Shown here piece by piece: positions 3,001 through 62,485 of a stretch of 64,000 bases of DNA. The position numbers were made by a program, and so were the translations under genes. Within the stretch, counting starts at the first letter, position 1, and each line of letters begins with the position of its first letter. Origin of the DNA: a virus; the UHGV virus genome UHGV-0218015, one strand, 5' to 3'. Below the pieces are notes generated by a model. The model ran no database searches and had not been told where the DNA came from. It saw nothing but the letters and a program-made list of their open reading frames with translations.

Positions 3001-4276
3001 CCCCAACGATTTCTGTACCTTTACCAGTTTTAAGCTTAACAACACCTTTTTCAGTGGTTGTCGCTTTCGTCGGGTCGATAGTACCCACGATAGGATCGGT
3101 CCGAGAGCCTTTACCGGTGAAGCTAATCCCATTACGGCCTTCGATGTACACCTTTGAGTCGTCGGGGTCACCGCCACCGCTCCCGCCAGCATCAGGATCT
3201 TGTTGGTATTCCATCAATGCTGTGGTGGTCAGTAACGGGTTACCGTTTAGGGTGAGTTTGTTCATCCCTAAAGCATCGCCTGTTGACTCGATACGTAGGA
3301 TGTTTTTACCAGCACGCCAGTTAATGTAACGTCCTGCACCCGTTCCTTCCAGATGCCCTACCGATAACACTACAGAACCGTTGGATTTTAACGTAAAGCC
3401 ATCATTCGCAAAAATGATTTCTGACTCACCGTTTTTTGAGCGGAACTGTGCACGGTTTCCTGACACCGTACAGTTAAACACACCCCGTACTTCTGAAGAA
3501 ATCCAGTGGGAGATATACGTGTCAATAACTGACTGTGGTAAACGAAACGCTTTCAGCTCATCCGTCAATGCTTTCAACTTTAACCCGTACGCCATAAAGG
3601 TGTCGGGTGTTTTCAAGTTAACAGGATGTGCGTTAATCTGTGCAGAAGTGGTTTGGTGCGGGTTGGTTTCCGCGATGTGTGCCGGGTAGTTAAATGTCTC
3701 GATTTCTTTACCCAGCGCGGCGACTAACGCTTTAACTTCGGCTAATTTATCTTTAATTAACTGGTTAGCGTCATCGGTTTTCAATTCAACATCGTGGACT
3801 GCCGACGCTAAATATTTTTTGTTTAGCAAATCCGCCCAAGACGTTGCCGCAGGCGTAGCCGGGTATAACGACGGTCTGCCTTCTAATAACAACCAGTCAG
3901 CGCTGACTGGGTTATTCAAATATTTCACCAGCTCATCGAGAATATCAACAAACGGGTCGTAGAACGTACCGCCGAGCATTTGTCCTTCAAAGGTTACGAT
4001 GCCTTTGATGGAAGGGTTGATAAGGTGTACCCCACAATACACGTTGGCTGCTACCGAGTCATCCAGTTCCGTCAGCTGATATTGCAGTTCGTAGTCCACC
4101 CCACGACTCAGTGGGGTGGTTGAACCTGGTTGTCTGACGACTAAATCTTCAAAGAACGGGCGATGGTCTAAAATCACCACCCGATCGTTGTTGTTTTCTG
4201 ACCCGATGATACGCTCCTCTAAGAAGTGATTCTCGGTTTTCGTCCCCCGAGGATCGTAAGGATACGCTTTCATCAA
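92..4276 (-). CDS. large tail fibre-like virion protein (1394 aa)
   Basis: Uninterrupted 1394-aa ORF; N-terminal region shares a module with the adjacent 1440-aa protein (PFF..LVV..G...DY); Gly/Thr/Ser-rich repetitive segments typical of fibres. Track start is TTG; an in-frame ATG follows one codon later, with an AAGGAG-like RBS. Confidence 0.6.
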   Translation of the reverse strand: MMKAYPYDPRGTKTENHFLEERIIGSENNNDRVVILDHRPFFEDLVVRQPGSTTPLSRGVDYELQYQLTELDDSVAANVYCGVHLINPSIKGIVTFEGQMLGGTFYDPFVDILDELVKYLNNPVSADWLLLEGRPSLYPATPAATSWADLLNKKYLASAVHDVELKTDDANQLIKDKLAEVKALVAALGKEIETFNYPAHIAETNPHQTTSAQINAHPVNLKTPDTFMAYGLKLKALTDELKAFRLPQSVIDTYISHWISSEVRGVFNCTVSGNRAQFRSKNGESEIIFANDGFTLKSNGSVVLSVGHLEGTGAGRYINWRAGKNILRIESTGDALGMNKLTLNGNPLLTTTALMEYQQDPDAGGSGGGDPDDSKVYIEGRNGISFTGKGSRTDPIVGTIDPTKATTTEKGVVKLKTGKGTEIVGVAATPASLAPYATDLSGYVAKTTMINGKPMNDGSRTITKADLGLGQADNTADLDKPLSTKLTEAVSGLADVGHHHDWSELGIYKASQSVYGIGRYATNQNGLVENRAVVPNILKELSARLSVVAAAIANAKEGTVTDFAAVKGADWRFNSQGTAISVQDLKYFYLLDGTKGDSTVTGAIDLQTTPMFNWFSPNNQLELTWPTGKVSKGTGISWDGIVDPPTMGFQSVPVGKSATQMGVQSVVSVLAKTRVKARQKRLFVYAAGGGTITVYVNGVVGATGASPLLMNYGTSPDVENYTIAVKAECSDTAKSAAVQFEVYDGDYPVYFSGPETRVELLQEFVTTHVGIRHYLYVNMLTGSLYSRAEPVQGFEVDPERGYIGYVDIVPGQSYANKTVGFETTFDFGKSAEVSEHNSIRKAHGLNAADWSLTDNPRLPLLNRAIAEPRACIFRKPLATATGDVFHLVSRGLYTYAHNQNVKSSLQYVVIPEGATPYCWFTPFNPKENNAPTFEGSFAFDVDDVGGTQALAAAPDLVLCTSTQGSSVKRRYLRIDLTTKTCKLGIGSRSDSAVTDIPLVMEESGETAVAATFKDVLFNGEETNAATLDLIGWGASRDKISANHAPRGMIRYRYNVNSRVLRLALTFSQFGTTTVKHRQLEIQFPFDLVDYFTGDGVGLSFKELSAKCRVTISHALIDPATSNVDIDKYHYLRSLFESYLDSSVGYLADTKDVDFSQTVIDPATYEISQKYRVTESIALPTGQGSVAVSHDGQLPAQFFDRKLSRGALMAKKGELNASWNNEWSTTKAAASRYRHKLILRFAQGADKQQYRVAKVAGTVKSNWPGKVIIGDAGKDPYVSAIDSVSFALSTASDTGKAITLTPKDLRVGQDIYIVLEPPGNNPEGYELNFTCSLDVTDEKSVRQDQLNAQSFELRSGESQFLMEKRNPYHITSKAWKWILAVLKRELNGKQLGDRT

Positions 4277-11393: not shown

Positions 11394-11425
11394 AATTGAT
11401 TTCAGATATATATTACTTAAGTGAA
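11394..11425 (+). promoter_or_regulatory. phage promoter-like motif TTTCAGATATATATTACTTAAGTGA
   Basis: 20-nt core identical to a second copy at about 15788-15812; contains TATATTAC, which I recall as the phiKZ early promoter consensus; sits in a divergent intergenic region. Confidence 0.45.
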
Positions 11426-11506: not shown

Positions 11507-11587
11507 ATGTCTACTAAAAAGAAAGAAAGTCTCAATGAGCTGCTCAAACGGCTTAAAGACTACACTCCATTTAGTACCTTCCGATAA
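11507..11587 (+). CDS. possible 26-aa basic peptide (MSTKKKESLNELLKRLKDYTPFSTFR)
   Basis: ATG preceded by a GGGGAGA RBS-like sequence, downstream of the promoter-like motif; too short to be sure it is coding. Confidence 0.25.
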   Translation: MSTKKKESLNELLKRLKDYTPFSTFR

Positions 11588-11794: not shown

Positions 11795-12532
11795 ATGAGA
11801 GAATTATTAGACGATATCTTTACTAACACCAGTTTAGAACTTTCTTCTACTGTTGTTAACGAACTAATAAAACAATACCAACCTGCTAAGTTAATCGATG
11901 CTGGAACAATTAAACCTGAAGATTATCCAGACAGTGACGTTATCGACTGTATGATTGACGAATACGTGATAGGCAGTTACGCCAACCGCGTCTTCTTCGT
12001 TATTAATACCGAAACCAGTGTCATGTTAATCTATAAGTTGATCAGTGATGCCGAACTTGAAGTTGTGGCTGACCACATTCGTCTTCTTGCGAACACGCCT
12101 ACTAGTATCGATGATGTGCTTATTGGGAACGGTTGGGCTTTACCACCACTATTCTCTTACTTCCCTCTGTTTAGAAATGGGATAGGGTTACTCCGAAATG
12201 CAGAAAACCTTCCCGATAACGTCGAGTTATCACTGCTTGGACCCGGCATCGATCTTTGTCCATTAGAAGACGAGGGCACGCTATATGGTTTGCGCATCTA
12301 TGTTTCTGTGTTAAAGGGTTACCGCGTTATTGAACTGATTGCATCCGACTTAGCAAAACAGATCCCAGATGTGGAAACGATTTCTAAAGCCACCCACCTG
12401 GTTGAGATTAACTCAGACGATCCCTTATTGAAATATCACGAGAAAATTGATCTTCGTAAAATCGCCACGATGAGAGGGTGGAGTTGTGCTGAGATTACGA
12501 AGGACTATCTGCTGTTAATTAAAACCGCGTAA
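11795..12532 (+). CDS. hypothetical protein, member 1 of tandem paralog family (C-terminal GW module)
   Basis: 245 aa; N-terminus M.ELLDDIF resembles 14367..15140; C-terminus RGWSCAEITKDYLLLIKTA resembles the GW...QLLF ends of the next three genes. Confidence 0.55.
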   Translation: MRELLDDIFTNTSLELSSTVVNELIKQYQPAKLIDAGTIKPEDYPDSDVIDCMIDEYVIGSYANRVFFVINTETSVMLIYKLISDAELEVVADHIRLLANTPTSIDDVLIGNGWALPPLFSYFPLFRNGIGLLRNAENLPDNVELSLLGPGIDLCPLEDEGTLYGLRIYVSVLKGYRVIELIASDLAKQIPDVETISKATHLVEINSDDPLLKYHEKIDLRKIATMRGWSCAEITKDYLLLIKTA

Positions 12533-15152: not shown

Positions 15153-15731
15153 GTGTACCGATTAATAGAAATGCGAAAAGACGTTTGGTTAGAAAATCTC
15201 GTCGATGGGGAGCTTGAGGGAATAGAGCTTTCCTTACCAGAAAGAGCGGACACGGTATTAGCCTTTCTGATAAAGCGGGCAGCGAATGAACCTGTGGGGA
15301 TTTTCGACGTGGATTACAAAGATCCGCGCGGAATTCGTTTACGTAACATCTGTTGTGGTTTAGATAACTTGACGGCAAGTCCTTTCGTAAACTACGCAAA
15401 ACGTAAACTCCAGCCAGGGCAACATCTCTGGGTAGTTCTAGCGCCAGATATTCGCATTATGCGAGACGACCTGACTGCGTTTGTGCAAGCAACGAAAGTC
15501 AGTTTGTACAATCCTAATGCGGAACGTACCGATATGCCGTTTACAATCACCTTAGAAGACGATGGAACGCAAGAGGGCATTGAGGCGATTACGGAATTAG
15601 TAAACTCTTATCCGGTTGCATCTATCGAGTTAGAAAACCCAAACCGATTACCGTTGGGGGATTTACTCGAATGGATTGAGCTGAATACTGAGTTCCTCAT
15701 TAACTCCCGGCAGTATCGGTTCGATGTATAA
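15153..15731 (+). CDS. hypothetical protein (192 aa)
   Basis: Complete ORF with GTG start directly after the paralog cluster, followed by a terminator hairpin. Confidence 0.5.
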   Translation: MYRLIEMRKDVWLENLVDGELEGIELSLPERADTVLAFLIKRAANEPVGIFDVDYKDPRGIRLRNICCGLDNLTASPFVNYAKRKLQPGQHLWVVLAPDIRIMRDDLTAFVQATKVSLYNPNAERTDMPFTITLEDDGTQEGIEAITELVNSYPVASIELENPNRLPLGDLLEWIELNTEFLINSRQYRFDV

Positions 15732-15732
15732 C

Positions 15733-15768
15733 GTCGGTGGGGGTTTACCCCCACCTTTTATTTTTTGT
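15733..15768 (+). terminator. rho-independent terminator
   Basis: Hairpin GGTGGGGGT / ACCCCCACC followed by a T-rich run (TTTTATTTTTTG). Confidence 0.7.
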
Positions 15769-15785: not shown

Positions 15786-15833
15786 AATTTCAGATATATA
15801 TTACTTAGGTGAGAGTTCAGTTACTCTCACTTA
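15786..15833 (+). promoter_or_regulatory. phage promoter-like motif TTTCAGATATATATTACTTAGGTGA with downstream stem-loop
   Basis: Second copy of the motif at 11394-11425; immediately followed by the inverted repeat GTGAGAGT..ACTCTCAC; about 48 nt upstream of the ATG at 15861. Confidence 0.45.
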
Positions 15834-15860: not shown

Positions 15861-16232
15861 ATGAAAAGCGAATTATTTAAAGACCCGTTTGTTGCATTAC
15901 TGATCGTTACACGCGCCGCCACTAACCCAGAAGACCTGAAACGTTTACTTACCAACGAAGCATACCTTCTCGAGCAACGTGACGTGCAGTTAGACAAACC
16001 ACACGCTGAAAGCCAGGTGAAAGACCTTATCTCTATTTTCCGTAACGAAGAATGGCGTAAAAACAACGAGCTGTCCGATAACCTGACGGTTTCGATTGCA
16101 AAACTCTTAACATTGTTCAATCTTGACAAAGACATTAATCAATGCCTTTCTACAGAAGAACGCCTGGAAATGATAAGAGGTATCGGAGATAGTTATACAC
16201 AGATTCAGGCATTACGCAACGCTCTCATTTAA
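15861..16232 (+). CDS. hypothetical protein (123 aa)
   Basis: ORF with AGGAG RBS, downstream of the promoter-like motif. Confidence 0.5.
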   Translation: MKSELFKDPFVALLIVTRAATNPEDLKRLLTNEAYLLEQRDVQLDKPHAESQVKDLISIFRNEEWRKNNELSDNLTVSIAKLLTLFNLDKDINQCLSTEERLEMIRGIGDSYTQIQALRNALI

Positions 16233-16263
16233 TTCCTCGGTTTATAGGGCCCCTTATTTTTAG

Positions 16264-16662
16264 ATGGTGAAATCAATGAATATCAGAACAATACTTTATA
16301 CTATCATTATTTTCTGTGCGGCAGGCATCACCGCTACTTATGCTTTTGGGGAGTCAGATATCCACTACTACGACCCAGCACCAGACTCCCCAATTATTAA
16401 TCCTGATGAAACACCAACACTAATGCGAAGCTTCGGTAAACTAGAGGTGTACCGTCTGGTGCGTGCCGACGTGTGTACTGGTTTGATTATCGCCGATAGC
16501 AGTGCACATGTTTATCAGCGTCTAACCGATATTGCTTGCGAACAACCAAAAGTAATGTCGGTTAGCATACATCCGTTATCTGTTGGTAACTATACCGCTG
16601 TGGACTTCTTTCATAACGCCGAATTAATTGGCCGAGTTACTTTAAATCGTCCTGCTGAATAA
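16264..16662 (+). CDS. small secreted or membrane protein (signal peptide)
   Basis: N-terminal hydrophobic leader NIRTILYTIIIFCAAGITATYA; 132 aa. Confidence 0.5.
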   Translation: MVKSMNIRTILYTIIIFCAAGITATYAFGESDIHYYDPAPDSPIINPDETPTLMRSFGKLEVYRLVRADVCTGLIIADSSAHVYQRLTDIACEQPKVMSVSIHPLSVGNYTAVDFFHNAELIGRVTLNRPAE

Positions 16663-16680
16663 TCTAAAGGAGTAGTCACA

Positions 16681-17166
16681 ATGAAACGTTTACATACACT
16701 GATGTTCTTTCTGGTTTTCTTGTTTATCGGTGCCACACCTACTGTAGATGCGGCCCCCGTAGACGAATTACTTACCTGCGATGGGAACGCTCGGGAAGGT
16801 CAGCCAAATGCGTGTCCAAACATCAACGACTTGTACGATACCGATAAGTCATTTAAAGGTGTTGTTGATAAAACACTAGATCCGGTGGGACTGGATGGAA
16901 TGTTCGGCTCTAAAGGTTACATGGATGGCCCTGGCGGTAACATGTATCCGGTAAATATCAACAACAAAATCTGGATTGAAAGTGGTGGTTGTAAAGCTAA
17001 CGCTTGTGGCTGGGAATATATCGTAACGCTATACAACCCACACACCAAGAAACTCGTCGGTTATTATTACAACATCGACCCCGGTTATCTGATTTGGTTC
17101 GGCGAAATCGGCGTTGCTGAATTCGGTTATCTGGTTAAGAAGTACGTAGAACAATCTAAATACTAA
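16681..17166 (+). CDS. secreted cysteine-containing protein, possible Ivy-like fold
   Basis: Sec-type leader MKRLHTLMFFLVFLFIGATPTVDA; GGCKANAC loop reminiscent of the Ivy CKPHDC loop as I recall it; 161 aa. Confidence 0.4.
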   Translation: MKRLHTLMFFLVFLFIGATPTVDAAPVDELLTCDGNAREGQPNACPNINDLYDTDKSFKGVVDKTLDPVGLDGMFGSKGYMDGPGGNMYPVNINNKIWIESGGCKANACGWEYIVTLYNPHTKKLVGYYYNIDPGYLIWFGEIGVAEFGYLVKKYVEQSKY

Positions 17167-17176
17167 GGAGTTTATC

Positions 17177-17587
17177 ATGAAAACTATCATCAACACTCTT
17201 CTCATTGCAATTGCTATTCTGTTCTCTGTTAACGTATCAGCAAAAATAACACAGTTGCCAGCTGGAATTAAGTACGTCAATAGTACCGACGATTTCTACT
17301 GTACAGAAATTGACGGCCTGTACTGTCAGGCGAAGAGCCTGTTTAAATACAAAGGTAGCAGATACGTGTTCATCGTTGAGCAGGGCGGGGCCTGGTGCTA
17401 CGACAGCCCTATGTCCGTACTCAACCTCGAAACGTGGAAAGCACAGCGCCTTGAATACAACGACAAACGTTTGTGCTCTGGCAATAACAAACCATTCTTC
17501 GAAGTCGTAGATGGTGTACCGATGGTGGGGATATTAGACACTTCGGAAAAACCTATCGTTGTAGCTATGGATAAACTTAAAATTTAA
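17177..17587 (+). CDS. secreted cysteine-containing protein
   Basis: Leader MKTIINTLLIAIAILFSVNVSA; GG..C motif (EQGGAWCYD) shared with neighbours; 136 aa. Confidence 0.5.
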   Translation: MKTIINTLLIAIAILFSVNVSAKITQLPAGIKYVNSTDDFYCTEIDGLYCQAKSLFKYKGSRYVFIVEQGGAWCYDSPMSVLNLETWKAQRLEYNDKRLCSGNNKPFFEVVDGVPMVGILDTSEKPIVVAMDKLKI

Positions 17588-17597
17588 GGAGTAACTC

Positions 17598-17987
17598 ATG
17601 CGTCTCATCTGCGCTTTAGCATTCTTCTTCTCCCTGAGTGTAGCGGCATCTACCCAGGTTAATGATTTACTGCTAACCTCAAACAACAATACCGATTATC
17701 AGTACAATCCCCCGGGGTTTGAAGTTTGTGAAGTCGGTGAAACAATCTGCCAAGAAGTCGGCGCAGACGGGCGCTATATTCTGGTAAAAGCTGATGGTGG
17801 CACAATGTGTCCCGCAGGTTATTACTTTCTACTCGATTCCGTTGCAAGAGAGGTTCTTCCTATCACCACGAAAACGTGCGACCCTACTGTTGTCTTAACT
17901 CTCGCTAAAAGCAAATCTCGCGACCGTTATCTGATCGTTATCGAAGAACGGGGCAAGATGGCTGGCGCTATCGAATTAGATCATTGA
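17598..17987 (+). CDS. secreted cysteine-containing protein
   Basis: Leader MRLICALAFFFSLSVAAS; GG..C motif (ADGGTMCPAG); 129 aa. Confidence 0.5.
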   Translation: MRLICALAFFFSLSVAASTQVNDLLLTSNNNTDYQYNPPGFEVCEVGETICQEVGADGRYILVKADGGTMCPAGYYFLLDSVAREVLPITTKTCDPTVVLTLAKSKSRDRYLIVIEERGKMAGAIELDH

Positions 17988-17995
17988 GTGTAGTC

Positions 17996-18025
17996 TTGGC
18001 CCCGGAACGTCCGGGGTCCTTTTTA
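17996..18025 (+). terminator. rho-independent terminator
   Basis: Hairpin GGCCCCGGAACGTCCGGGGTCC followed by TTTTT. Confidence 0.65.
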
Positions 18026-24016: not shown

Positions 24017-24742
24017 ATGTATAAATCCAACTGGAGAAACAAAATGTTTCGTATCTTCTTTCTTTTACTGGTAACACTTTTCGCGTTTAACGCACAGGCG
24101 TCAACGTCAACGCCACAAACTAAACATCAGCGTGAGTTTACACAAATCCAACATCGGTTCGAAAAAGTCAGTCCGTTAATTGTGGAAATCTCACGAAAGC
24201 AAGGCGTTGATCCTAAGCTGATGATTACGCTGATTTATCGTGAATCGCGTTTTGATCCCAAGGCTTACAACAAAAGCTCACGGGCACACAGCCTGGTACA
24301 GATGCTTCCAAGTACCAAGCGTAGTCTGCTAAAGCTTTATGGAAAAGAATTAGGTCTTAGTCAGAACGCCGATTTGTATAATCCGCGTAACGCTGTTTTG
24401 CTGGCTACCGCGTATGTTAAACATCTTGAGAAGGGGTTAACCAAACGACTCAAACGCAAGCCCACCATGGCTGAAGTTGCGTTAGCTTACCACTGGGGTG
24501 AAAGTGGTGCTCACACGCGAATCAAAAGCAAATCTCGAGCAGCACAACGAGAAATGGCAGGCTTTATGAAAGATGCCTCGTTCTATAGCGCGAAAATCGA
24601 TGTGTCTGTTGTTGTGGGCTCGGCCCCACGTCAGCTTGCGTTTGCGAAGAAAACATCACGTCAGATTCAATTGGCGGAAGTTAGTAAAATTTGGGATACG
24701 ATAAACACGAGTTTTCCAATCAATAGAGGAGTTACCCTTTGA
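24017..24742 (+). CDS. secreted lytic transglycosylase (SLT-domain; possible signal-peptide endolysin)
   Basis: Sec leader MFRIFFLLLVTLFAFNAQA; SLT family-1 motifs ...YRESRFDPKAY...AHSLVQMLPST...; 241 aa. Confidence 0.7.
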   Translation: MYKSNWRNKMFRIFFLLLVTLFAFNAQASTSTPQTKHQREFTQIQHRFEKVSPLIVEISRKQGVDPKLMITLIYRESRFDPKAYNKSSRAHSLVQMLPSTKRSLLKLYGKELGLSQNADLYNPRNAVLLATAYVKHLEKGLTKRLKRKPTMAEVALAYHWGESGAHTRIKSKSRAAQREMAGFMKDASFYSAKIDVSVVVGSAPRQLAFAKKTSRQIQLAEVSKIWDTINTSFPINRGVTL

Positions 24743-29966: not shown

Positions 29967-30425
29967 TTGATGAAAATGCTATTATTCATCATGGTAGTGT
30001 TCGTGGGGTTGGTGAGTAATAGCTACGGTGACGAAGTTAAACGTCCAGCTTATAGACCACTGGAACTTCCTCCTGAACCGCCAATAATGGTGAATTGGAA
30101 AATTGACAAGAATGCAATGCGTGAGTATGTTGCAGATGTCAACACCTATGCTTATTACGTTTATGTCTACACACGAAATTTAAACCAGCAAGCCGCTAAA
30201 CGTGGCTGGAGTCCACCAATGTTGGCTCCACTTTGTGAACGCTATGAGTTACCGAAATTACACGTTGTACCTGAGCGCATGTTTCTTGATGAGAGCTCTT
30301 TAACGGCCCAGGAGATTAGCCGTGATTTATCGCGTAAACTCAATAATTTGTTGTGGAATTACCGTTCCGACCGTCAGGCACTGCTCGATTCGTATAACCA
30401 ATACTTGACATCGTGTTTGTACTGA
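29967..30425 (+). CDS. secreted protein (signal peptide)
   Basis: Leader MMKMLLFIMVVFVGLVSNSYG with no lipobox cysteine; 152 aa. Confidence 0.45.
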   Translation: MMKMLLFIMVVFVGLVSNSYGDEVKRPAYRPLELPPEPPIMVNWKIDKNAMREYVADVNTYAYYVYVYTRNLNQQAAKRGWSPPMLAPLCERYELPKLHVVPERMFLDESSLTAQEISRDLSRKLNNLLWNYRSDRQALLDSYNQYLTSCLY

Positions 30426-55318: not shown

Positions 55319-58300
55319 TTACGCCCGTTTACGACCAACGTCGAGTTGGCGGGCAGGTTGTTCAACCGCGATGTTACGTGATGCTGACCCCGGGGCAGAA
55401 GCCGCCGAACTAGCTGGGGAGGACTGCATAGCCTGTGGTCGCTGACGAAGAATTGTAACAATCTCTCTCAGATAACCCGCAGACTCTTTTGCAACCGCCA
55501 GCTGCTGTACGCTAATCGGATCACCGCTGTTCACCGTTGGCGCAGTCTGTGCATCAGACGTTACCGTTGGCGCAGGACGAGCTGTTTTCTCCATTTGCTG
55601 TCTAGCACCTTCTTTTACTTTGGCAACTTCCTCTTCGCCCAGGCCATCAGCACGCGCATTTTGACCCACCGTTTCAACAACGACAGACGCATCACTTGGC
55701 GTGACGTCACCGCCAGGACTCGGCACAGCTGGACCACCCCCAGTTGCAGCTTTAATATCTTCAGCGCCCATCGCTCCTTTGTCTGCTAAAGCGGAGTCAC
55801 GATTCGCCTCGTTCGCGGCTGGCAGGTTATCTGCCGGACCAGAAATAGACGGATCGTTAGCTGCGCCAGCAGCAATTGCAGGAGACGATGGAACTGGCGA
55901 TAACCCTTTTGTCATGTTTTTCGCAGACGCAGGATTTGCCGCAATCTCGTTAGTTCCAACCGCGCCCATACGGCGGTTCAGTTCCTCGACAACCTCACCG
56001 ATCGTACGCATCCTAACGCGTTTCTTCCCGTTCATGATATAGAAAACACCTTCGTTGCCGTTAAGAACAGCAGGTGTAATATACTTCACTTTGTCGGGCG
56101 ACCCGTTAGGATTGGTTTTCCAGGCTTTAAGGAACTCAGCACCACCACCTGGACCTAAGAAGTGGTATAGGTACGCTACTGCCGGAGGTGGGGCAATTCC
56201 ACCCAGATCCTTTTGTGCGGTCTTGATGTTGTCTCTAATGAAGTTAACACCTAAGATTGCGTTAGCCCACGGGTCGAACTGGTCGGTTTGTGGGATACCG
56301 TATCTTCGGGCGTACTGCTTCATAACCCCGTTCCAAGTACCATTGGTAAATTGGAACAGTCCAGCGGCAGACATCTTATTACTTCTCGGTCTACCAGAGG
56401 ATGCGCCAGGGTAGTTGCCATACTGTAAGCCAGATTCTGCTTGTGCCATTGCAATCGCAACGGATGGCGGAACACCCACCATGTTTGCCGCGTCAATAAT
56501 CAATGACTTAATGGCTTCGGTATTTGACTGCATCGGTTTGCCAAGCATTTCCCTTGGGTATTTAGTCACTAACGATTTGTAATCACCGTCTTGTAACTCA
56601 CCGAGGGTGATACCAGATTGTCCAGTGGAATACTTCGCATAGTTCCCTATACCCATATCGCCAACAACTTGTGATAAGTCACCTGGCGTACCGTAGTACT
56701 GACCACCTTTTGGTAAGTATCCGTCGTTTGAAGCTTCGCCGTAGCTGTTAATTCCCTTATAACGCTCTTTGCTATCTTCATTCGTCTGATGGACACTGGA
56801 GTTTGTCGCTGGTGATTTCCATGTCATACGCTTAGGCGTGCTCGGTGTTTCTTTGAGCATATTCCTTACAGCCAGATCAGGTTCTTTAGACAACTCTTTC
56901 AACGTTGCTAATTCTTCCTTCACCGAACCCGCGTCAGTATTCGCATCGCCTCCTAACGGGTTAAATGCGATTTCCCACACAGACTGACGGATACCCCCTT
57001 TCATGTTGTAAGCACCACGCATCATCAGTGCCAGCTCATAGAGGAAACCCCCCGTGAGTTTCAAATCCAACGGATCGGCATGAGGTACGTAACGTTTTAC
57101 ACCATAAACGTAGGTCATGAATACTGGTAAGAATCGATTATAGAACCAGTTCTTGTAACGCTCCTCTTTTGGACCGCCAATTGCATCAGGCGCAATCGCA
57201 GAAATTGCTTTCTTCCAATCACCCTTATAAATGCAATTTTTGATATCCGTGTCTTTCAACACTTCTTTCTCAAGCAACCTAAAGAGGGTACGTGTTGTCT
57301 CATTAACAGATTTCACACCGTAAGATTTCCAACGGACGGATTCCATCGCGTCCAAATCTTTCTTCTCAGGTAATACTCTCCAGTCAACTTGAATTTGAAC
57401 CTGTTCAGTACCGTCTTCCCAACCCTCAGCTTTAGCAACGGTTTCGTTACGTTCGGTATCGTTCTTCGCGAGTACCTGCGAAGATTCTGCCACAGAAGCA
57501 ACCTTATGTCCTTCAGGCACAGCACCGGCTCTAGTTGTTTTCTTACGCTTATCATCGCGGCGCATGTTGATCGAACGGAAAACACGATCTTGTGCCTCAA
57601 CAACTTCTTCGCCTGACAAAAATTCTGCCGGTGTGAAGGTCACGAAATCCCACGCTTTAGAGAACCAACCTTGGTTAACTTTACGGGGGTCTGTCAGCGA
57701 TTTAAAAGCAGGTGCATCTTTTGTCATCTTCATTTTGTTAAAGATGGTAAGCATGTCTGCTTTTGATACCTTCGACGGATTACCGACGTCAGCTAACGCG
57801 ATATCGTTATCCATTGAACGTAACGCTGTAATCCAACGTAAATAGATCGGCACAAAACGTTGTAGCATAAACGCACTAAACGCCAGCATTTCGCCTTTGT
57901 CTTCTACGTTAGTACCAAACCCTTCGGCCAGTTTCTTCACATCGTCACCGGACAAACCACGCAGCTGCGCTTGACCGTTCTCTGTATAAGAGATATACGG
58001 TTTCAAGTTGTCTTCTAAATAACGTGCTTTTGCACCGTCGTCGGAAGACCATTCATCGTGGTCTCTAAAACCGTACTGTGCCAATCGCATGTTATCCAGA
58101 TACTGGGCATTTACACGATCTTTAGTTTTATAATAAAACCACGTTAACCCTGCGCCAGCGGCTACCAAACCGATAATCGGCCAGCCAACCGCAGTTACCA
58201 CTGCAGATGCAGCTGTCGCGACAGCACTAACCGCAGGGACAGCCAAACGGGTCACGGCAAACTTACCAACGTTCCACAACGCTTTGCCTGCAAATCCAAC

Positions 58301-61300
58301 CGGCTTGAAGATTCCCCATTTTGCAAGTTTACCTAAGATTGAACCCACTGTGCCTAAAATACTCACGATTGGTCCTACCAACGGCAATCCTTTAAGGAAA
58401 TCCATTACCCCACGTTTACCACCTTTCTTCTCAGCCTCTTTCTTAGCCTTTTCCTCTTCCTTAGAACGCCGACGGCGTCGGAAGAACTGGAAGTAATCGC
58501 GTTTTTCATCACTGGCAGGCGGCTTATTGCGTTGGCCGAACTTACTGAACATAGTTCTTAACAAACCTTCCGAAGCACCTGCTTTTTCCGCAGAATCACG
58601 CATGGTGTTAAACCATGACATTTCCTGAAGATTAACCATTCGGTTCAGGCGTTCCAGTAAAGCTGACCCAACGCTACGGGCTTTCTGTTTCCCTTTATTA
58701 ATCACACGTCCAGCGCTATCCGTTACGGTGTCTAAGTCTTCTTTTGCCGCATCGATGATACGTGTTTTAGACACCTTGCCTCTTGCGTAGATGTGCTGAC
58801 GATAAAACTCAGCAACATCGTCATCGCGTCCTGCTAAACGACTCTCCATTCGATAACGTGTGCCGATATCGTAACGTGGGTCTCGGAAAGTATCGACCAT
58901 ATCGCTTGCACGGCCACGGAAACGATCAAACCAACCACGTGCGGCACCGCCCCAACGAGAAAGACGACCACCTACCGCATTGCGATAACGGGACATTCTG
59001 TCACGCATCCGACCGCGCCAATCCCGGAACCCCTGAAAATGTTCACGGAACCCTTCACGTATGTCCTTAGCACGTTGGAATAATCCTTTAACTGAGCTGG
59101 CTCCCGTATTCCGTTCCATCTGTTCTGTCCAGGTATCATCTTCTGGTTCACCTGGCAATCTCCGGTTAAGGAGTTTGTAGATACGGATTAAGATGTGGTT
59201 AGTTTTACGGCCGTTCGACCATGAGAACACACTAAACCCACCACCAGAACCCCCTTCCTTACGGTTCTGCCACCAACGTGTCAGAGGGTTATCAGAAGCC
59301 AACTCTTTGAGCTTCTCAAACCCGCGTTTTGCATTGTTCCACAAACGCGCTGGCATTCCCGTTACACGGGAAATCATGCTTTGTAAACGGGTTTTCTCTG
59401 CGCCCTCTGGAACCTCATTTAGCCACTCGCGTGCTTTCTCGAACAACGAAGCCGCTTTAGGTGAAATGAAGCCCAGAAGTTTCTTCGGTAAAGTCACAGC
59501 TTTGTTTACCGCCGTTCCTGCTTTCCCAGAAATGTACTGGAAAAGCGCTTGAACTTTACCACCTTTGTAGAAGCGCAGTTTACCTGCGGCAGCCAAATCA
59601 GCAGCAGCTAAGATTAAATTACCCGCTTCATCGACAATATCGCGTCCCAGTTTAATATCGTCGAGGGTTTTAAGTTGAATCAGCTTCTCAGTTTTCGGGT
59701 CAGCCTGGTAATATTCCCCAGCTTCTAAACGACTTCCTTGTAATACGACGTTGCCACGTTCATCGTAAATATCACGAACACCTAAAACGCCTTTACCGAA
59801 AGCTACAGCAGAATTCCAACCTGTCGATAGAGTACCTGTTACTAACCCTTTCAGTCGGCTAAATACACCGGGTCCTTCGGAGGGGCCGCCTGAGAATTTC
59901 CCACGGATAAAACCACCTAAAGCCTGCAGACGATCTTTCCCACGTAGGAACAGATTCTTACCAAACCGCCCTACACCTGAACCGGTATCCCAAAGCACCC
60001 CAGCCCAACGGCGTAACAAGCCTGTCTCGCCTAGCACAATACGTTTGCGTTTACGACGACGTTTACGACCCGAGTCACTCGAACTTTCAGATTCGTCACC
60101 GTCATCACGACTACCGCCTAAACTGGCTAGGAGAATACCTTCCTCATCCATGTTCTTAACGTGTTTGAGGATATCTTGCACTGTGCTAGATTCGGGCTGT
60201 TTACGTACAGCATCAATCAAACGGTCGAATTGGTGCTCCAACCCGGCGTTCGTGTCTGGACGACTGCTTAATAGTTCAACAAAGTTAGTGGATTTCTCTC
60301 CATAAAGTACCGCAGCGAGTTGGCGTGCGCTTAAACCGCGACCACGACCTCCTTTTCCACCGCCACGTACATTGGACAGTTCTTTGTCTTCAAAGCTCGG
60401 CTCTGCGCCTGCACCCATCCGACGCAAGTAATCACCCAGCGCAGAACCGTTTTGCAATTTACGCTGAATCTCTTGCTCACGGGTTAACGAACGTCCAGAG
60501 CGGGTCTTACCCATCGACAGGTCATTAAATAACGTATAGGGATCGTTAATGTCCTTATCAACCTCGAAAATGTCATTCTTCGCATCGTATTTAAAAATAC
60601 CGGAATCACGAAGTGCATTCTCGCCGTAAATCACAGACGCAGCATCAACAGTGTCCTGACGTGCGCGAATCGTTGACTGGATAGCGGCGATTTTGTTTGA
60701 AATCGCGTTGCTCAGTTCATGGTGCCCACCAACCAGTTCCGCAGAACGGGCTTCTAAAACACCCTGAATCGCTTCCACAGCGTTTGCGTTCATGTACCGA
60801 TACATGTGCATCGGGTCTTTCAATAAAGACCCTACGTCGAACGCTTTCCCTTCTGAGGCACGAGATTCGATGTAGTCCGCTAATGCTTGACGTGTTTTAT
60901 TATCGAGCGTTTTATCTTTATCGATAAAGTCAACAGTGTCGTTGATGTAAGTCTGTAAACGTTTACGCTGATCGTCATTAGCGACCGCTTTACGAACACG
61001 ATTACCAATAACTTTACGATCCACCATACCGCGTGTGGTCAGGTCATAAACCTGATCGTGGTGTTCCCCATATCCACGACGAATAGATTTGTTAATCTCG
61101 GACAGTAACGTCGGAATAACTTCAGTGATGCTGAGGTAAGCTTTACGATCGAATTTCGCCGCCGCAGAAAGAGATTCCGCAGAGCGATCGTCTAATGCTA
61201 ACGTTTCGCGACGTAGCGGGTTAACCAATCCCAAATCGTGCATTAGGCGAAACAGATCAGCTAACGGGCCGCTTGTTTCTCCTGCTATTGCTGAGTTAGA

Positions 61301-62485
61301 GATGGACGACAAATTTCCAAAACCATACTTCGCCAACTGAAGGCGTTTCATGACTTCTGGATTTTTCTCTAACTCGCCACGAGTCCAGTTTTGTAGACGT
61401 TCGATCTGTGGTTGTAAGAGTCGTTTTGCTAACCAACCACCTGCAAAACCTGCCGCTTTATTACGCGAGTTTGTATTACGACGGTCAGGAGACAACGATG
61501 AGCTGTCCGACATGTCAAAGTCGTCTTCCTGGGCCATCCCTAGAACTTGTTCTAGAATCCCACGACCATCGCTAAAGACGTTCGAGATTTTCTTCTTCGC
61601 GTTCTCACGAATCTGGCTAATGAAATTGTCTGCGTAATGTAAGGGGTTCATCCACTCCGCAGCTTTACGTTTTACATTAGCCCAACGAATTTCAGAAAAC
61701 TCTTCCTTCGCGTAGTCTGGCAGTGCTGTATTCTTAACGATAGCTTCTAATGCCGGTGTATTGCGTGCAAACTCGTCTTGTTTGAGTTTCGCAATATCCT
61801 GCAAAGCAAACAATGTCCGATATTGCAGCTCTAACTGCTTACGCTGAACATTCAACAACACGCCACGACTTAAGCTAGTCGTTAAGTTGACGTCTTTTGC
61901 AATACCGATTACTGTCTGGAACAGTGCGTCGGACTTCATGTCCTTAATCGTGTCACGCAAGCGGTCTTCAACCATCCCTTCTTGCGTTTCGCGTTGTTGG
62001 TCCGCTGTTTGCGGTGCACCTGAGAACACGCTATCCAGCTCACGATCCATCAACGCTTGTTTAGGATCGTAATTCCCGTAGTCGACTTGATCGTTACGTG
62101 CCCACTTGTCGATTTTCCGTGTTACGGATTCCGGTAAATACCGTTTCAGTGTTGGGCCTAACTGTCTCGCTTGCATCTTAACGACGCGAGACGTCTTTTC
62201 AATCTCGTCTTTCGTATGGGCCAGAATGTCTTGACCTGCAGCTTTAACGTTTTGATAGCCTTCGTAGGCTTCTGCCGCAGGTTTAGGCATCCCTTTTAAA
62301 ATAACCTGATCACGTTTGTTTTCGGGCCAGATAGTCGACAACGCCGACTTACGGGCAGCACGAAATGTGTCCATGACCGGGTTACGCGATTGGTCTTGTT
62401 GACGAGGGGGCTCATCAAAATCGTCCCAGTCGTCCATGTTATCAAGATCGATTTCATCGAAATCATCTTTACCTTTTTTAGCCAT
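55319..62485 (-). CDS. giant virion protein (2388 aa) with transmembrane block and lytic transglycosylase domain
   Basis: Acidic N-terminus; hydrophobic helices around aa 1290-1385 (at about nt 58330-58615); SLT family motifs VAIAMAQAESGLQYG...AAGLFQFTNGTW...AYLYHFLGPGG near the C-terminus (at about nt 56000-56400). Size and domain placement resemble phiKZ gp181 as I recall it. Confidence 0.8.
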   Translation of the reverse strand: MAKKGKDDFDEIDLDNMDDWDDFDEPPRQQDQSRNPVMDTFRAARKSALSTIWPENKRDQVILKGMPKPAAEAYEGYQNVKAAGQDILAHTKDEIEKTSRVVKMQARQLGPTLKRYLPESVTRKIDKWARNDQVDYGNYDPKQALMDRELDSVFSGAPQTADQQRETQEGMVEDRLRDTIKDMKSDALFQTVIGIAKDVNLTTSLSRGVLLNVQRKQLELQYRTLFALQDIAKLKQDEFARNTPALEAIVKNTALPDYAKEEFSEIRWANVKRKAAEWMNPLHYADNFISQIRENAKKKISNVFSDGRGILEQVLGMAQEDDFDMSDSSSLSPDRRNTNSRNKAAGFAGGWLAKRLLQPQIERLQNWTRGELEKNPEVMKRLQLAKYGFGNLSSISNSAIAGETSGPLADLFRLMHDLGLVNPLRRETLALDDRSAESLSAAAKFDRKAYLSITEVIPTLLSEINKSIRRGYGEHHDQVYDLTTRGMVDRKVIGNRVRKAVANDDQRKRLQTYINDTVDFIDKDKTLDNKTRQALADYIESRASEGKAFDVGSLLKDPMHMYRYMNANAVEAIQGVLEARSAELVGGHHELSNAISNKIAAIQSTIRARQDTVDAASVIYGENALRDSGIFKYDAKNDIFEVDKDINDPYTLFNDLSMGKTRSGRSLTREQEIQRKLQNGSALGDYLRRMGAGAEPSFEDKELSNVRGGGKGGRGRGLSARQLAAVLYGEKSTNFVELLSSRPDTNAGLEHQFDRLIDAVRKQPESSTVQDILKHVKNMDEEGILLASLGGSRDDGDESESSSDSGRKRRRKRKRIVLGETGLLRRWAGVLWDTGSGVGRFGKNLFLRGKDRLQALGGFIRGKFSGGPSEGPGVFSRLKGLVTGTLSTGWNSAVAFGKGVLGVRDIYDERGNVVLQGSRLEAGEYYQADPKTEKLIQLKTLDDIKLGRDIVDEAGNLILAAADLAAAGKLRFYKGGKVQALFQYISGKAGTAVNKAVTLPKKLLGFISPKAASLFEKAREWLNEVPEGAEKTRLQSMISRVTGMPARLWNNAKRGFEKLKELASDNPLTRWWQNRKEGGSGGGFSVFSWSNGRKTNHILIRIYKLLNRRLPGEPEDDTWTEQMERNTGASSVKGLFQRAKDIREGFREHFQGFRDWRGRMRDRMSRYRNAVGGRLSRWGGAARGWFDRFRGRASDMVDTFRDPRYDIGTRYRMESRLAGRDDDVAEFYRQHIYARGKVSKTRIIDAAKEDLDTVTDSAGRVINKGKQKARSVGSALLERLNRMVNLQEMSWFNTMRDSAEKAGASEGLLRTMFSKFGQRNKPPASDEKRDYFQFFRRRRRSKEEEKAKKEAEKKGGKRGVMDFLKGLPLVGPIVSILGTVGSILGKLAKWGIFKPVGFAGKALWNVGKFAVTRLAVPAVSAVATAASAVVTAVGWPIIGLVAAGAGLTWFYYKTKDRVNAQYLDNMRLAQYGFRDHDEWSSDDGAKARYLEDNLKPYISYTENGQAQLRGLSGDDVKKLAEGFGTNVEDKGEMLAFSAFMLQRFVPIYLRWITALRSMDNDIALADVGNPSKVSKADMLTIFNKMKMTKDAPAFKSLTDPRKVNQGWFSKAWDFVTFTPAEFLSGEEVVEAQDRVFRSINMRRDDKRKKTTRAGAVPEGHKVASVAESSQVLAKNDTERNETVAKAEGWEDGTEQVQIQVDWRVLPEKKDLDAMESVRWKSYGVKSVNETTRTLFRLLEKEVLKDTDIKNCIYKGDWKKAISAIAPDAIGGPKEERYKNWFYNRFLPVFMTYVYGVKRYVPHADPLDLKLTGGFLYELALMMRGAYNMKGGIRQSVWEIAFNPLGGDANTDAGSVKEELATLKELSKEPDLAVRNMLKETPSTPKRMTWKSPATNSSVHQTNEDSKERYKGINSYGEASNDGYLPKGGQYYGTPGDLSQVVGDMGIGNYAKYSTGQSGITLGELQDGDYKSLVTKYPREMLGKPMQSNTEAIKSLIIDAANMVGVPPSVAIAMAQAESGLQYGNYPGASSGRPRSNKMSAAGLFQFTNGTWNGVMKQYARRYGIPQTDQFDPWANAILGVNFIRDNIKTAQKDLGGIAPPPAVAYLYHFLGPGGGAEFLKAWKTNPNGSPDKVKYITPAVLNGNEGVFYIMNGKKRVRMRTIGEVVEELNRRMGAVGTNEIAANPASAKNMTKGLSPVPSSPAIAAGAANDPSISGPADNLPAANEANRDSALADKGAMGAEDIKAATGGGPAVPSPGGDVTPSDASVVVETVGQNARADGLGEEEVAKVKEGARQQMEKTARPAPTVTSDAQTAPTVNSGDPISVQQLAVAKESAGYLREIVTILRQRPQAMQSSPASSAASAPGSASRNIAVEQPARQLDVGRKRA

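Follow-up and report, generated by a model that had tools for sequence, protein, structure and literature searches.

The stretch of DNA analysed here (the window, 64,000 nucleotides of the virus genome UHGV-0218015) carries a run of four consecutive small genes on the + strand, called W1 to W4, each of which encodes a protein with a Sec-type N-terminus. W1 (16264–16662) encodes 132 amino acids, W2 (16681–17166) 161, W3 (17177–17587) 136 and W4 (17598–17987) 129. They are separated by 18, 10 and 10 nt, and a Shine–Dalgarno sequence AAGGAG lies 5′ of W2, W3 and W4. W2 is a divergent member of the Ivy superfamily, as judged from sequence comparisons and a predicted structure. W1 is a member of phrog_9424 with two conserved Cys residues, while W3 (phrog_8968), the downstream partner of the Ivy-like gene, and W4 (phrog_5248), a paralog of W3, are leader-bearing proteins with four Cys residues each. 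A preliminary description of this DNA had claimed four adjacent leader-bearing genes, which was borne out: the open reading frames (ORFs) lie on the + strand exactly where it had placed them, and all four have Sec-type N-termini.

The N-termini of W1 to W4 consist of a basic n-region followed by a hydrophobic core (Kyte–Doolittle 11-residue mean of 2.6–3.2), with small-x-small cleavage sites in W2 (VDA/A), W3 (VSA/K) and W4 (VAA/S). In W2, the leader comprises residues 1–24, MKRLHTLMFFLVFLFIGATPTVDA, followed by A, and both the n-h-c architecture and the A24–A25 site are invariant across the W2 family. Past the N-terminus, no transmembrane-like segment was seen in any of the four proteins with a rule-based check. 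The leader calls come from a check on the sequence of the same kind, which identified 6 leader-bearing ORFs among the 65 gene-sized ORFs in the window, i.e., W1 to W4, an SLT endolysin at 24017 and an ORF at 29967. Given this frequency, the chance of four in a row is approximately 1e-3 by our own combinatorial estimate. For W1, the true start is probably Met5 (position 16276), since all orthologs start there, and its hydrophobic stretch of 20 residues could be either a cleaved leader or a signal anchor. The mature parts contain conserved Cys residues in even numbers, two in W1 and four each in W2, W3 and W4, which fits with folding in an oxidising periplasm. We infer that W1 to W4 are exported to the host periplasm as small disulfide-bonded proteins. 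It is highly improbable that the leaders are not export signals at all, being instead membrane anchors of cytoplasmic or vesicle-associated early proteins, or that hypothetical genes happen to cluster here by chance. The rule-based nature of the leader calls and the length of the W1 segment, sufficient to span a membrane, are compatible with such an explanation; it is contradicted by the classic n-h-c architecture of W2 to W4 with AxA-type sites that are kept in their orthologs, by the invariant, even-numbered Cys residues of the mature domains, by the membership of W2 in a periplasmic family, by the low probability of the run and by the synteny of the block across genera. The sixth ORF with a Sec-like N-terminus (29967–30425, + strand) encodes 152 amino acids, starts with MMKMLLFIMVVFVGLVSNSYG and is without a Pfam match.

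The region has no near-identical match among 50,697 deposited phage genomes, as determined by megablast, and the phage was identified by tblastn instead. An 838-amino-acid SMC-like protein from the window is 70% identical to its counterpart in Erwinia phage Asesino, the value for Salmonella phage SPN3US being 58%. Because of these matches, and since no near-identical genome has been deposited, the window is taken to derive from an undeposited phiKZ-like jumbo phage of the SPN3US/Asesino type. Both phages carry a syntenic four-gene block at the same place, 5′ of two small genes and the SMC gene, i.e., gp201–204 in Asesino and gp180–183 in SPN3US, all of which are annotated as hypothetical. W1 is 46–47% identical to SPN3US gp180 and Asesino gp201 and W4 is 48–49% identical to SPN3US gp183 and Asesino gp204; the orthologs of W3 are weaker, with 28–30% identity. 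The block is thus a conserved operon of SPN3US-like jumbo phages. A W2-type Ivy relative is present in several uncultivated IMG/VR jumbo contigs as well. Within the 50,697 deposited phage genomes, no tblastn match to W2 was found, and a Foldseek comparison with the BFVD library of viral structures yielded no viral precedent. In the Salmonella phages SPFM1, 6, 8, 12, 14 and 20 (P0059–P0064), the sequence of SPN3US gp181 occurs in 20-residue blocks of reversed order, which is probably an artefact of GenBank deposition or assembly, as if the 60-nt lines of the sequence had been reversed.

The predicted transcription unit consists of an early promoter, a variable first gene, W1 to W4 and a terminator. 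Upstream, the preceding unit is closed by a terminator-like hairpin (15736–15755, + strand; an 8-bp stem with 7 GC pairs, then a T-run), located directly 3′ of the stop codon of the gene at 15153–15731. This is followed by a 24-nt motif, TTTCAGATATATATTACTTAGGTG (15788–15811, + strand), of the early type of jumbo phages, a predicted site for the virion RNA polymerase. The motif fits the early-promoter consensus tabulated for phiKZ, 201phi2-1, OBP and N1M2 (PMC7058600). Two copies are present in the window where none is expected. In SPN3US, Asesino and the metagenomic locus L008, the motif occurs as the sole copy per 12–14 kb locus, immediately 5′ of the cassette, so that, with the window included, four genomes have it conserved in this place. 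It is the extended 24-nt form that carries information, as TATATTAC, the short motif, shows no enrichment by itself (3 copies versus 2.1 expected), and a scan for sigma-70 promoters remained at background level. Downstream, another terminator-like hairpin (17998–18018, + strand) with a 9-bp stem, 7 GC pairs and a T-run closes the cassette 11 nt past the W4 stop codon. The second copy of the motif in the window (11400–11423, + strand) is also perfect and is followed by approximately 370 nt of mostly non-coding, hairpin-rich sequence up to the gene at 11795, with a short ORF starting at 11507 in between. Furthermore, a stable hairpin starts within or just past the motif, both in the window (15809–15831) and in SPN3US (L002, 2839–2856), and may represent a stem-loop in the 5′ untranslated region of early transcripts.

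The first gene of the predicted operon (15861–16232, + strand) encodes 123 amino acids without a leader and occupies a slot that varies between phages. In Asesino the slot before W1 is filled by a gene for a 428-amino-acid protein and in SPN3US by nothing, while L008, L017–L020 and L028 encode an exported YfjT-like protein there. All related jumbo-phage contigs that were examined have this leader-bearing YfjT-like gene (153 amino acids) just before W1, at 4187–4648 in L008 and at 3106–3564 in L017–L020 and L028, where the window instead has a spacer of 31 nt (16233–16263). Its PF27224 match is a precomputed annotation. Contig L017 contains both the 123-amino-acid gene and the YfjT-like gene. 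Comparison of these sequences indicates that the region between promoter and W1 is a hotspot of gene exchange. In the literature, nothing functional was found on SPN3US gp180–183 or on YfjT/YfjS.

To link W2 to Ivy, a fold search and transitive profiles were needed. Its assignment to the superfamily is based on the predicted fold, a profile–profile alignment, sub-threshold matches to Pfam and NCBIfam models and transitive homology via members of the Pfam Ivy family. The best AlphaFold2 model of W2, built from a 14-sequence alignment, has a predicted local distance difference test score (pLDDT) of 78 and a predicted template modelling score (pTM) of 0.72, and displays the Ivy fold, i.e., a five-stranded antiparallel sheet with flanking helices. 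An hhalign comparison between the W2 family and Ivy sequences, which had been checked against the PDB beforehand, gave an E-value of 1.6e-4 with the disulfide loops in register; in a search of the W2-family profile against PDB sequences, Ivy was not retrieved. Sub-threshold Pfam Ivy matches occur in 9 of the 14 W2-family members, among them the W2 homolog P0007, with a best score of 16.8 bits versus a gathering threshold of 21, and no Pfam family other than Ivy recurs among these 14. An exhaustive search of 1.84 billion representative proteins with the W2 profile yielded 53 relatives. Relatives retrieved at E-values from 6e-20 to 7e-4 score 22–46 bits on the Pfam Ivy model, against the same gathering threshold of 21, and several of these bridging proteins are named 'Ivy family c-type lysozyme inhibitor' by NCBI. 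The loops of full-length relatives include CEAHNCG, CEPHNCG and CKPHAC.

The preliminary description had likened a GGCKANAC loop in W2 to the CKPHDC loop of Ivy. The string is present and the homology to Ivy is supported, but the loop is without the His. In detail, C104-KANA-C109-G of W2 aligns in register with C-KPHD-C-G of Ivy, both consisting of C-x4-C followed by Gly and located between strands 2 and 3, and both loop Cys residues are invariant in 22 of 22 sequences in a joint alignment that includes E. coli Ivy. From CKPHDC, only the two Cys residues and the Lys are kept in CKANAC, and the consensus His of the loop is absent. A further claim, that three of the four proteins have a GG..C motif in common, holds for W3 and W4, where the motif is conserved; the GG is not conserved in the W2 family, so that the likeness is partly coincidental.

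W3 and W4 belong to a four-Cys family that also contains SPN3US gp181–183 and Asesino gp202–204, and that is characterized by a leader and the pattern C-x6-9-C ... GG-x2-C ... C, the Cys residues of which are conserved in the alignment. Matches to their PHROG profiles (6e-30 for W3 and 1.5e-30 for W4), a PHROG cross-match at 2.4e-3 and the BLAST links within the family (4e-10 between Asesino gp202 and gp203; 7e-6 between Asesino gp203 and W4) indicate that W3 and W4 are paralogs. The AlphaFold2 model of W4 is all-beta and of low confidence. Pfam searches with W1 to W4 gave nothing usable. A common origin of all four proteins, or an Ivy-like nature of all four, was considered and rejected, as hhalign comparisons of W1 and of W2 with W3/W4 were not significant. 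The idea from the preliminary description that the run as a whole might consist of inhibitors did not extend to W1, W3 and W4, which show no sequence or fold match to MliC/PliC, PliG or PliI, nor a likeness to any other known inhibitor family. This lack of resemblance is in line with another explanation, in which the four proteins are not inhibitors but modify the envelope by receptor masking, by blocking DNA at the inner membrane, like T4 Imm and T5 Llp, or by remodelling, with W2 reusing the Ivy scaffold for binding. The loss of the loop His in W2, the conservation of the cassette shape in phages without an Ivy-like member and the possible membrane anchoring of W1 point in the same direction. 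Nevertheless, we consider this explanation unlikely: the length of the disulfide loop, the Lys and the next Gly of W2 are all in register with Ivy, close E. coli relatives retain the His in their loop (CKAHAC), and the fusion or adjacency of Ivy with the four-Cys family recurs, as described below.

The close homologs of W2 are chromosomal E. coli proteins with 58–66% identity. In one type of E. coli CP4-like island, the Ivy-like gene has the loop CKANTC and 61% identity to W2; 15 nt further downstream lies a gene of 136 amino acids with 64% identity to W3. The gene order in this island is dynamin family, RdcB family, patatin, Ivy-like, W3-like, DUF932, antirestriction, YeeS, YeeT and CbeA/CbtA. 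A W2–W3-type pair in the same order was found in 2,383 of 5,426 complete E. coli genomes (approximately 44%), with at least 80% of the length covered in 1,884. E. coli Nissle 1917 carries the pair as CIW80_RS03735 and RS03740, both annotated as 'hypothetical protein'. The RefSeq product of CIW80_RS03735 (WP_001362823.1; L016, 7001–7678) is 225 amino acids long and has an N-terminal extension of 65 amino acids, the conserved leader MKRLHTLM starting at Met66; the gene thus probably starts further downstream than annotated, unless a short preceding ORF has become joined to it in frame. In L003, L013 and L016, a conserved triad of a dynamin-family GTPase, an RdcB/YjcZ-family protein and a patatin-like phospholipase is located immediately 5′ of the Ivy-like gene, which may be a separate defence-type module.

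A second type of island (P0007) was detected in 138 of the 5,426 E. coli genomes. Here, a frameshifted homolog of W1 lies directly 5′ of the Ivy-like gene (L003, 7684–7979; also in L004–L007). It is not called as a gene and was found by tblastn. Over the C-terminal 54 residues its identity to W1 is 78%, and 21 nt separate its end from the start of the Ivy-like gene. It resembles what would be left of a phage W1–W2 block that was captured and then decayed. Scans with W1-type and W4-type patterns in 185,579 species-representative genomes had identified none, which is a weak negative given that the frameshifted E. coli W1 was found later by tblastn. W1 belongs to the core of the cassette in jumbo phages, and in E. 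coli just fragments of the cassette occur, in phage order; from this we infer that at least the W1–W2 block moved from phage to bacterium. GC content did not decide the direction of transfer. In the bacteria, the Ivy-like genes lie in mobile islands, next to antirestriction, RadC and CbeA/CbtA genes. In Yersinia rohdei (CP009787.1; L010, 7001–8014), a four-Cys protein of the position-2 type (P0049) and a YfjT-family gene are found between a WYL regulator and DUF932, i.e., in the same CP4-type island slot as the E. coli Ivy-like gene.

Besides this adjacency, Pectobacterium and Salmonella contain proteins of approximately 315 amino acids (including P0073 and P0075) with an Ivy domain and, C-terminal to it, a W4-like four-Cys domain. 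The Cys spacing of this C-terminal domain is [6,20,22-23] versus [6,19,22] in W4. With profile A2 the domain scores 13–14 bits, which is reached by none of 2000 composition-preserving shuffles, and with profile A4 p is approximately 0.005–0.01, so that a fusion of Ivy and the four-Cys domain is probable. The two families are neighbours in mobile elements of two kinds and probably fused in these proteins, which argues that Ivy-like and four-Cys proteins work together.

Ivy is a known bacterial periplasmic inhibitor of lysozymes and lytic transglycosylases, the physiological role of which is still debated. Ivy proteins inhibit C-type lysozymes, and Ivyp1 and Ivyp2 from Pseudomonas aeruginosa inhibit MltB in vitro (PMC10139938; PMC3660660). 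A link between an Ivy-like protein and phage infection has been reported for E. coli O121, in which knockdown of Hypo_04657 by CRISPR interference (CRISPRi) raised both the fitness and the efficiency of plating of T7; the protein has an Ivy-like domain with the loop CKANTC (PHAGEPACK preprint, bioRxiv 10.1101/2024.04.20.590424). CKANTC is also the loop of the W2-family members P0016 and P0017, and Hypo_04657 is very probably the Ivy-like gene of the island. An explanation that stays close to the canonical function of Ivy would be that W2 protects the infected cell, by shielding it from animal lysozymes or by damping host autolysins during the long cycle of a jumbo phage, and the enteric hosts suggested by homologs and contigs from E. 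coli and Salmonella would suit such a role. It is rather improbable, as the loop of W2 is without the His of CKPHDC that is common to characterised lysozyme-inhibiting Ivy proteins, as E. coli already encodes both Ivy and MliC (PMC10139938), and as neither the three partner proteins nor the anti-T7 phenotype would be explained.

Two proteins in the window are candidate targets for W2. The first is the endolysin at 24017–24742 (+ strand), which the preliminary description had called a secreted lytic transglycosylase. This is confirmed by an SLT domain (Pfam E-value of 5e-15) and by a Sec leader of its own, MFRIFFLLLVTLFAFNAQA followed by S, that is conserved in SPN3US gp198 and Asesino gp218. 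The second, representing a possible target class, is a protein of 2,388 amino acids (55319–62485, - strand) with a C-terminal SLT domain (residues 1995–2093; Pfam E-value of 2.5e-8). It is a candidate virion cell-wall lysin, which we take to be probably of the phiKZ gp181 type. The presence of an exported endolysin raises the question whether the cassette serves the lysis of the phage itself, with W2 above all holding the endolysin inactive until programmed lysis. The endolysin leader and the cassette are indeed both kept in SPN3US and Asesino, and Ivy proteins do inhibit lytic transglycosylases in vitro. Moreover, T4 Spackle, which carries a leader and inhibits the tail lysozyme gp5 in the periplasm, has been linked to resistance against subsequent infection; the authors of that study propose that its main role is to inhibit free gp5 made by the phage itself (PMC7650644). 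However, SPN3US and Asesino possess the same leader-bearing endolysin without an Ivy-like gene, and the W2–W3 pair thrives in E. coli islands that lack an endolysin gene. In addition, the cassette is located approximately 6 kb from the endolysin, behind a promoter motif of the early and not the late type, and a foreign phage benefits when the probable E. coli homolog is knocked down, which fits better with defence than with the timing of lysis. Self-control of lysis is thus a possibility to which we assign a low probability.

Tentatively, and with somewhat more doubt than confidence, we favour the reading in which the cassette is an early periplasmic module directed against the wall-piercing enzymes of later-arriving phages, which E. 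coli islands have domesticated as a pre-entry defence. It draws on the homology of W2 to Ivy and the known activities of Ivy proteins, the leaders and conserved Cys pairs, the early-type promoter motif and the terminators on either side, the coupling of W2 and W3, the anti-T7 phenotype in O121, the placement of the bacterial genes in mobile islands, the candidate targets and the precedent of Spackle. According to this model, an early operon of SPN3US-like jumbo phages would deliver small proteins with disulfide bonds to the periplasm of the host. There, W2 would bind an enzyme that cleaves the glycan strands of peptidoglycan, either a lysozyme or an SLT-type lytic transglycosylase, as Ivy does, and its disulfide-bridged protruding loop C104-KANA-C109 would block the active-site cleft of the target. 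W3 would be the dedicated partner of W2, with its paralog W4 and with W1 as a fourth periplasmic component, and these partner proteins may widen the target range or anchor the inhibitor. The cassette would thereby neutralise the virion-borne wall-piercing lysins of phages that arrive later, resulting in superinfection exclusion by a logic similar to that by which T4 Spackle counters gp5. In enterobacteria, whose CP4-type islands would have captured it, the module would act as a pre-entry barrier against phages. Inhibitory activity, target identity and exclusion phenotype are putative in this model.

A number of points weigh against this favoured reading. W2 itself has no Pfam match at an E-value of 1 or below, and its match to the NCBIfam Ivy model (NF007443; E-value of 1.8e-3) reaches 18.2 bits, below the equivalog cut-off of 180. 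Only one of the five AlphaFold2 models of W2 is confident, the other four being poor. The W2 loop has Asn in place of the Ivy His and is without Pro and Asp, so that specificity or inhibitory capacity may differ, while the His is kept in most of the wider family as C-[EKQ]-x-H-N-C. At position 2, SPN3US and Asesino have no Ivy-like gene and carry a third W3/W4 paralog instead (Asesino gp202 versus gp203, E-value of 4e-10). Since it is missing in these phages, the Ivy-like gene is dispensable for the function of the cassette. A fold could not be assigned to the W3/W4 family. The early timing of the operon is a prediction from the match to the promoter motif. As for the literature, E. coli Ivy inhibits MltA and MltB weakly and no binding was detected (PMC10139938), and the target proposed in the O121 study is T7 lysozyme, not a virion lysin (bioRxiv 10.1101/2024.04.20.590424). 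The equation of Hypo_04657 with the island gene is a probable one, based on the loop match, and the CRISPRi knockdown may have been polar on the W3-like gene.

A more far-reaching version is doubtful. Here, the Ivy plug W2 and its four-Cys partners would disarm the transglycosylases of incoming virions, and enterobacteria would have repeatedly captured pieces of the module, namely the W1(pseudogene)–W2 and W2–W3 arrangements and the fusions of Ivy with a W4-like domain, as a widespread defence of phage origin.

If this version is true, the captured module would constitute a phage-derived class of defence that hits virion enzymes before DNA entry and that is present in approximately 44% of complete E. 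coli genomes. The analysis provides a first plausible role for SPN3US gp180–183 and Asesino gp201–204, and shows that genes have passed between jumbo phages of the virulent kind and CP4-type islands. Moreover, the W2–W3 pairing, supported by the E. coli pair, the Ivy/four-Cys fusions and the anti-T7 phenotype, gives rise to a testable hypothesis, namely neutralisation of phage lysins in the periplasm, leading to exclusion in the phage and defence in the bacterium. We believe that an Ivy relative in a virulent jumbo phage is new, as it appears undescribed. We believe the same for the fixed pairing and probable fusion of Ivy-like proteins with an uncharacterised four-Cys family, for the conserved early operon of exported proteins in SPN3US-like phages and for the blocks that these phages have in common with CP4-type islands.

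Among the known systems closest to the cassette is Ivy itself (YkfE in E. coli; Ivyp1 and Ivyp2 in P. aeruginosa; PF08816; PDB 1gpq, 1xs0 and 1uuz), with which W2 has approximately 15% identity. W2 differs from Ivy in its loop, where Asn, Ala and Ala replace His, Pro and Asp, and in being encoded by a virulent jumbo phage, always beside a gene for a four-Cys partner. In addition, the N-terminal disulfide C33–C45 of W2 is absent from E. coli Ivy. The Nissle-type pair is 61% and 64% identical to W2 and W3, respectively, with the same order and a similar spacing, and the Ivy-like fold of O121 Hypo_04657 was already noted in the preprint (bioRxiv 10.1101/2024.04.20.590424). Unlike the phage block, however, the pair is chromosomal, is located in CP4-type islands and has no W1 or W4 genes adjoining it. 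MliC/PliC, PliG and PliI are small exported, disulfide-containing and mostly-beta periplasmic proteins or lipoproteins with inhibitory activity, the likeness of which to W3 and W4 is superficial. Lastly, T4 Spackle (gp61.3) is a small phage protein with a cleaved Sec leader, and its periplasmic target is a phage enzyme that cleaves peptidoglycan; for W2, likewise small and leader-bearing, such a mode of action is proposed. Spackle has no sequence or fold relationship with W2, and it inhibits gp5 allosterically outside the substrate cleft, while Ivy-type inhibitors plug the cleft (PMC7650644). Moreover, Spackle is encoded by a single gene, whereas the jumbo-phage cassette consists of four.

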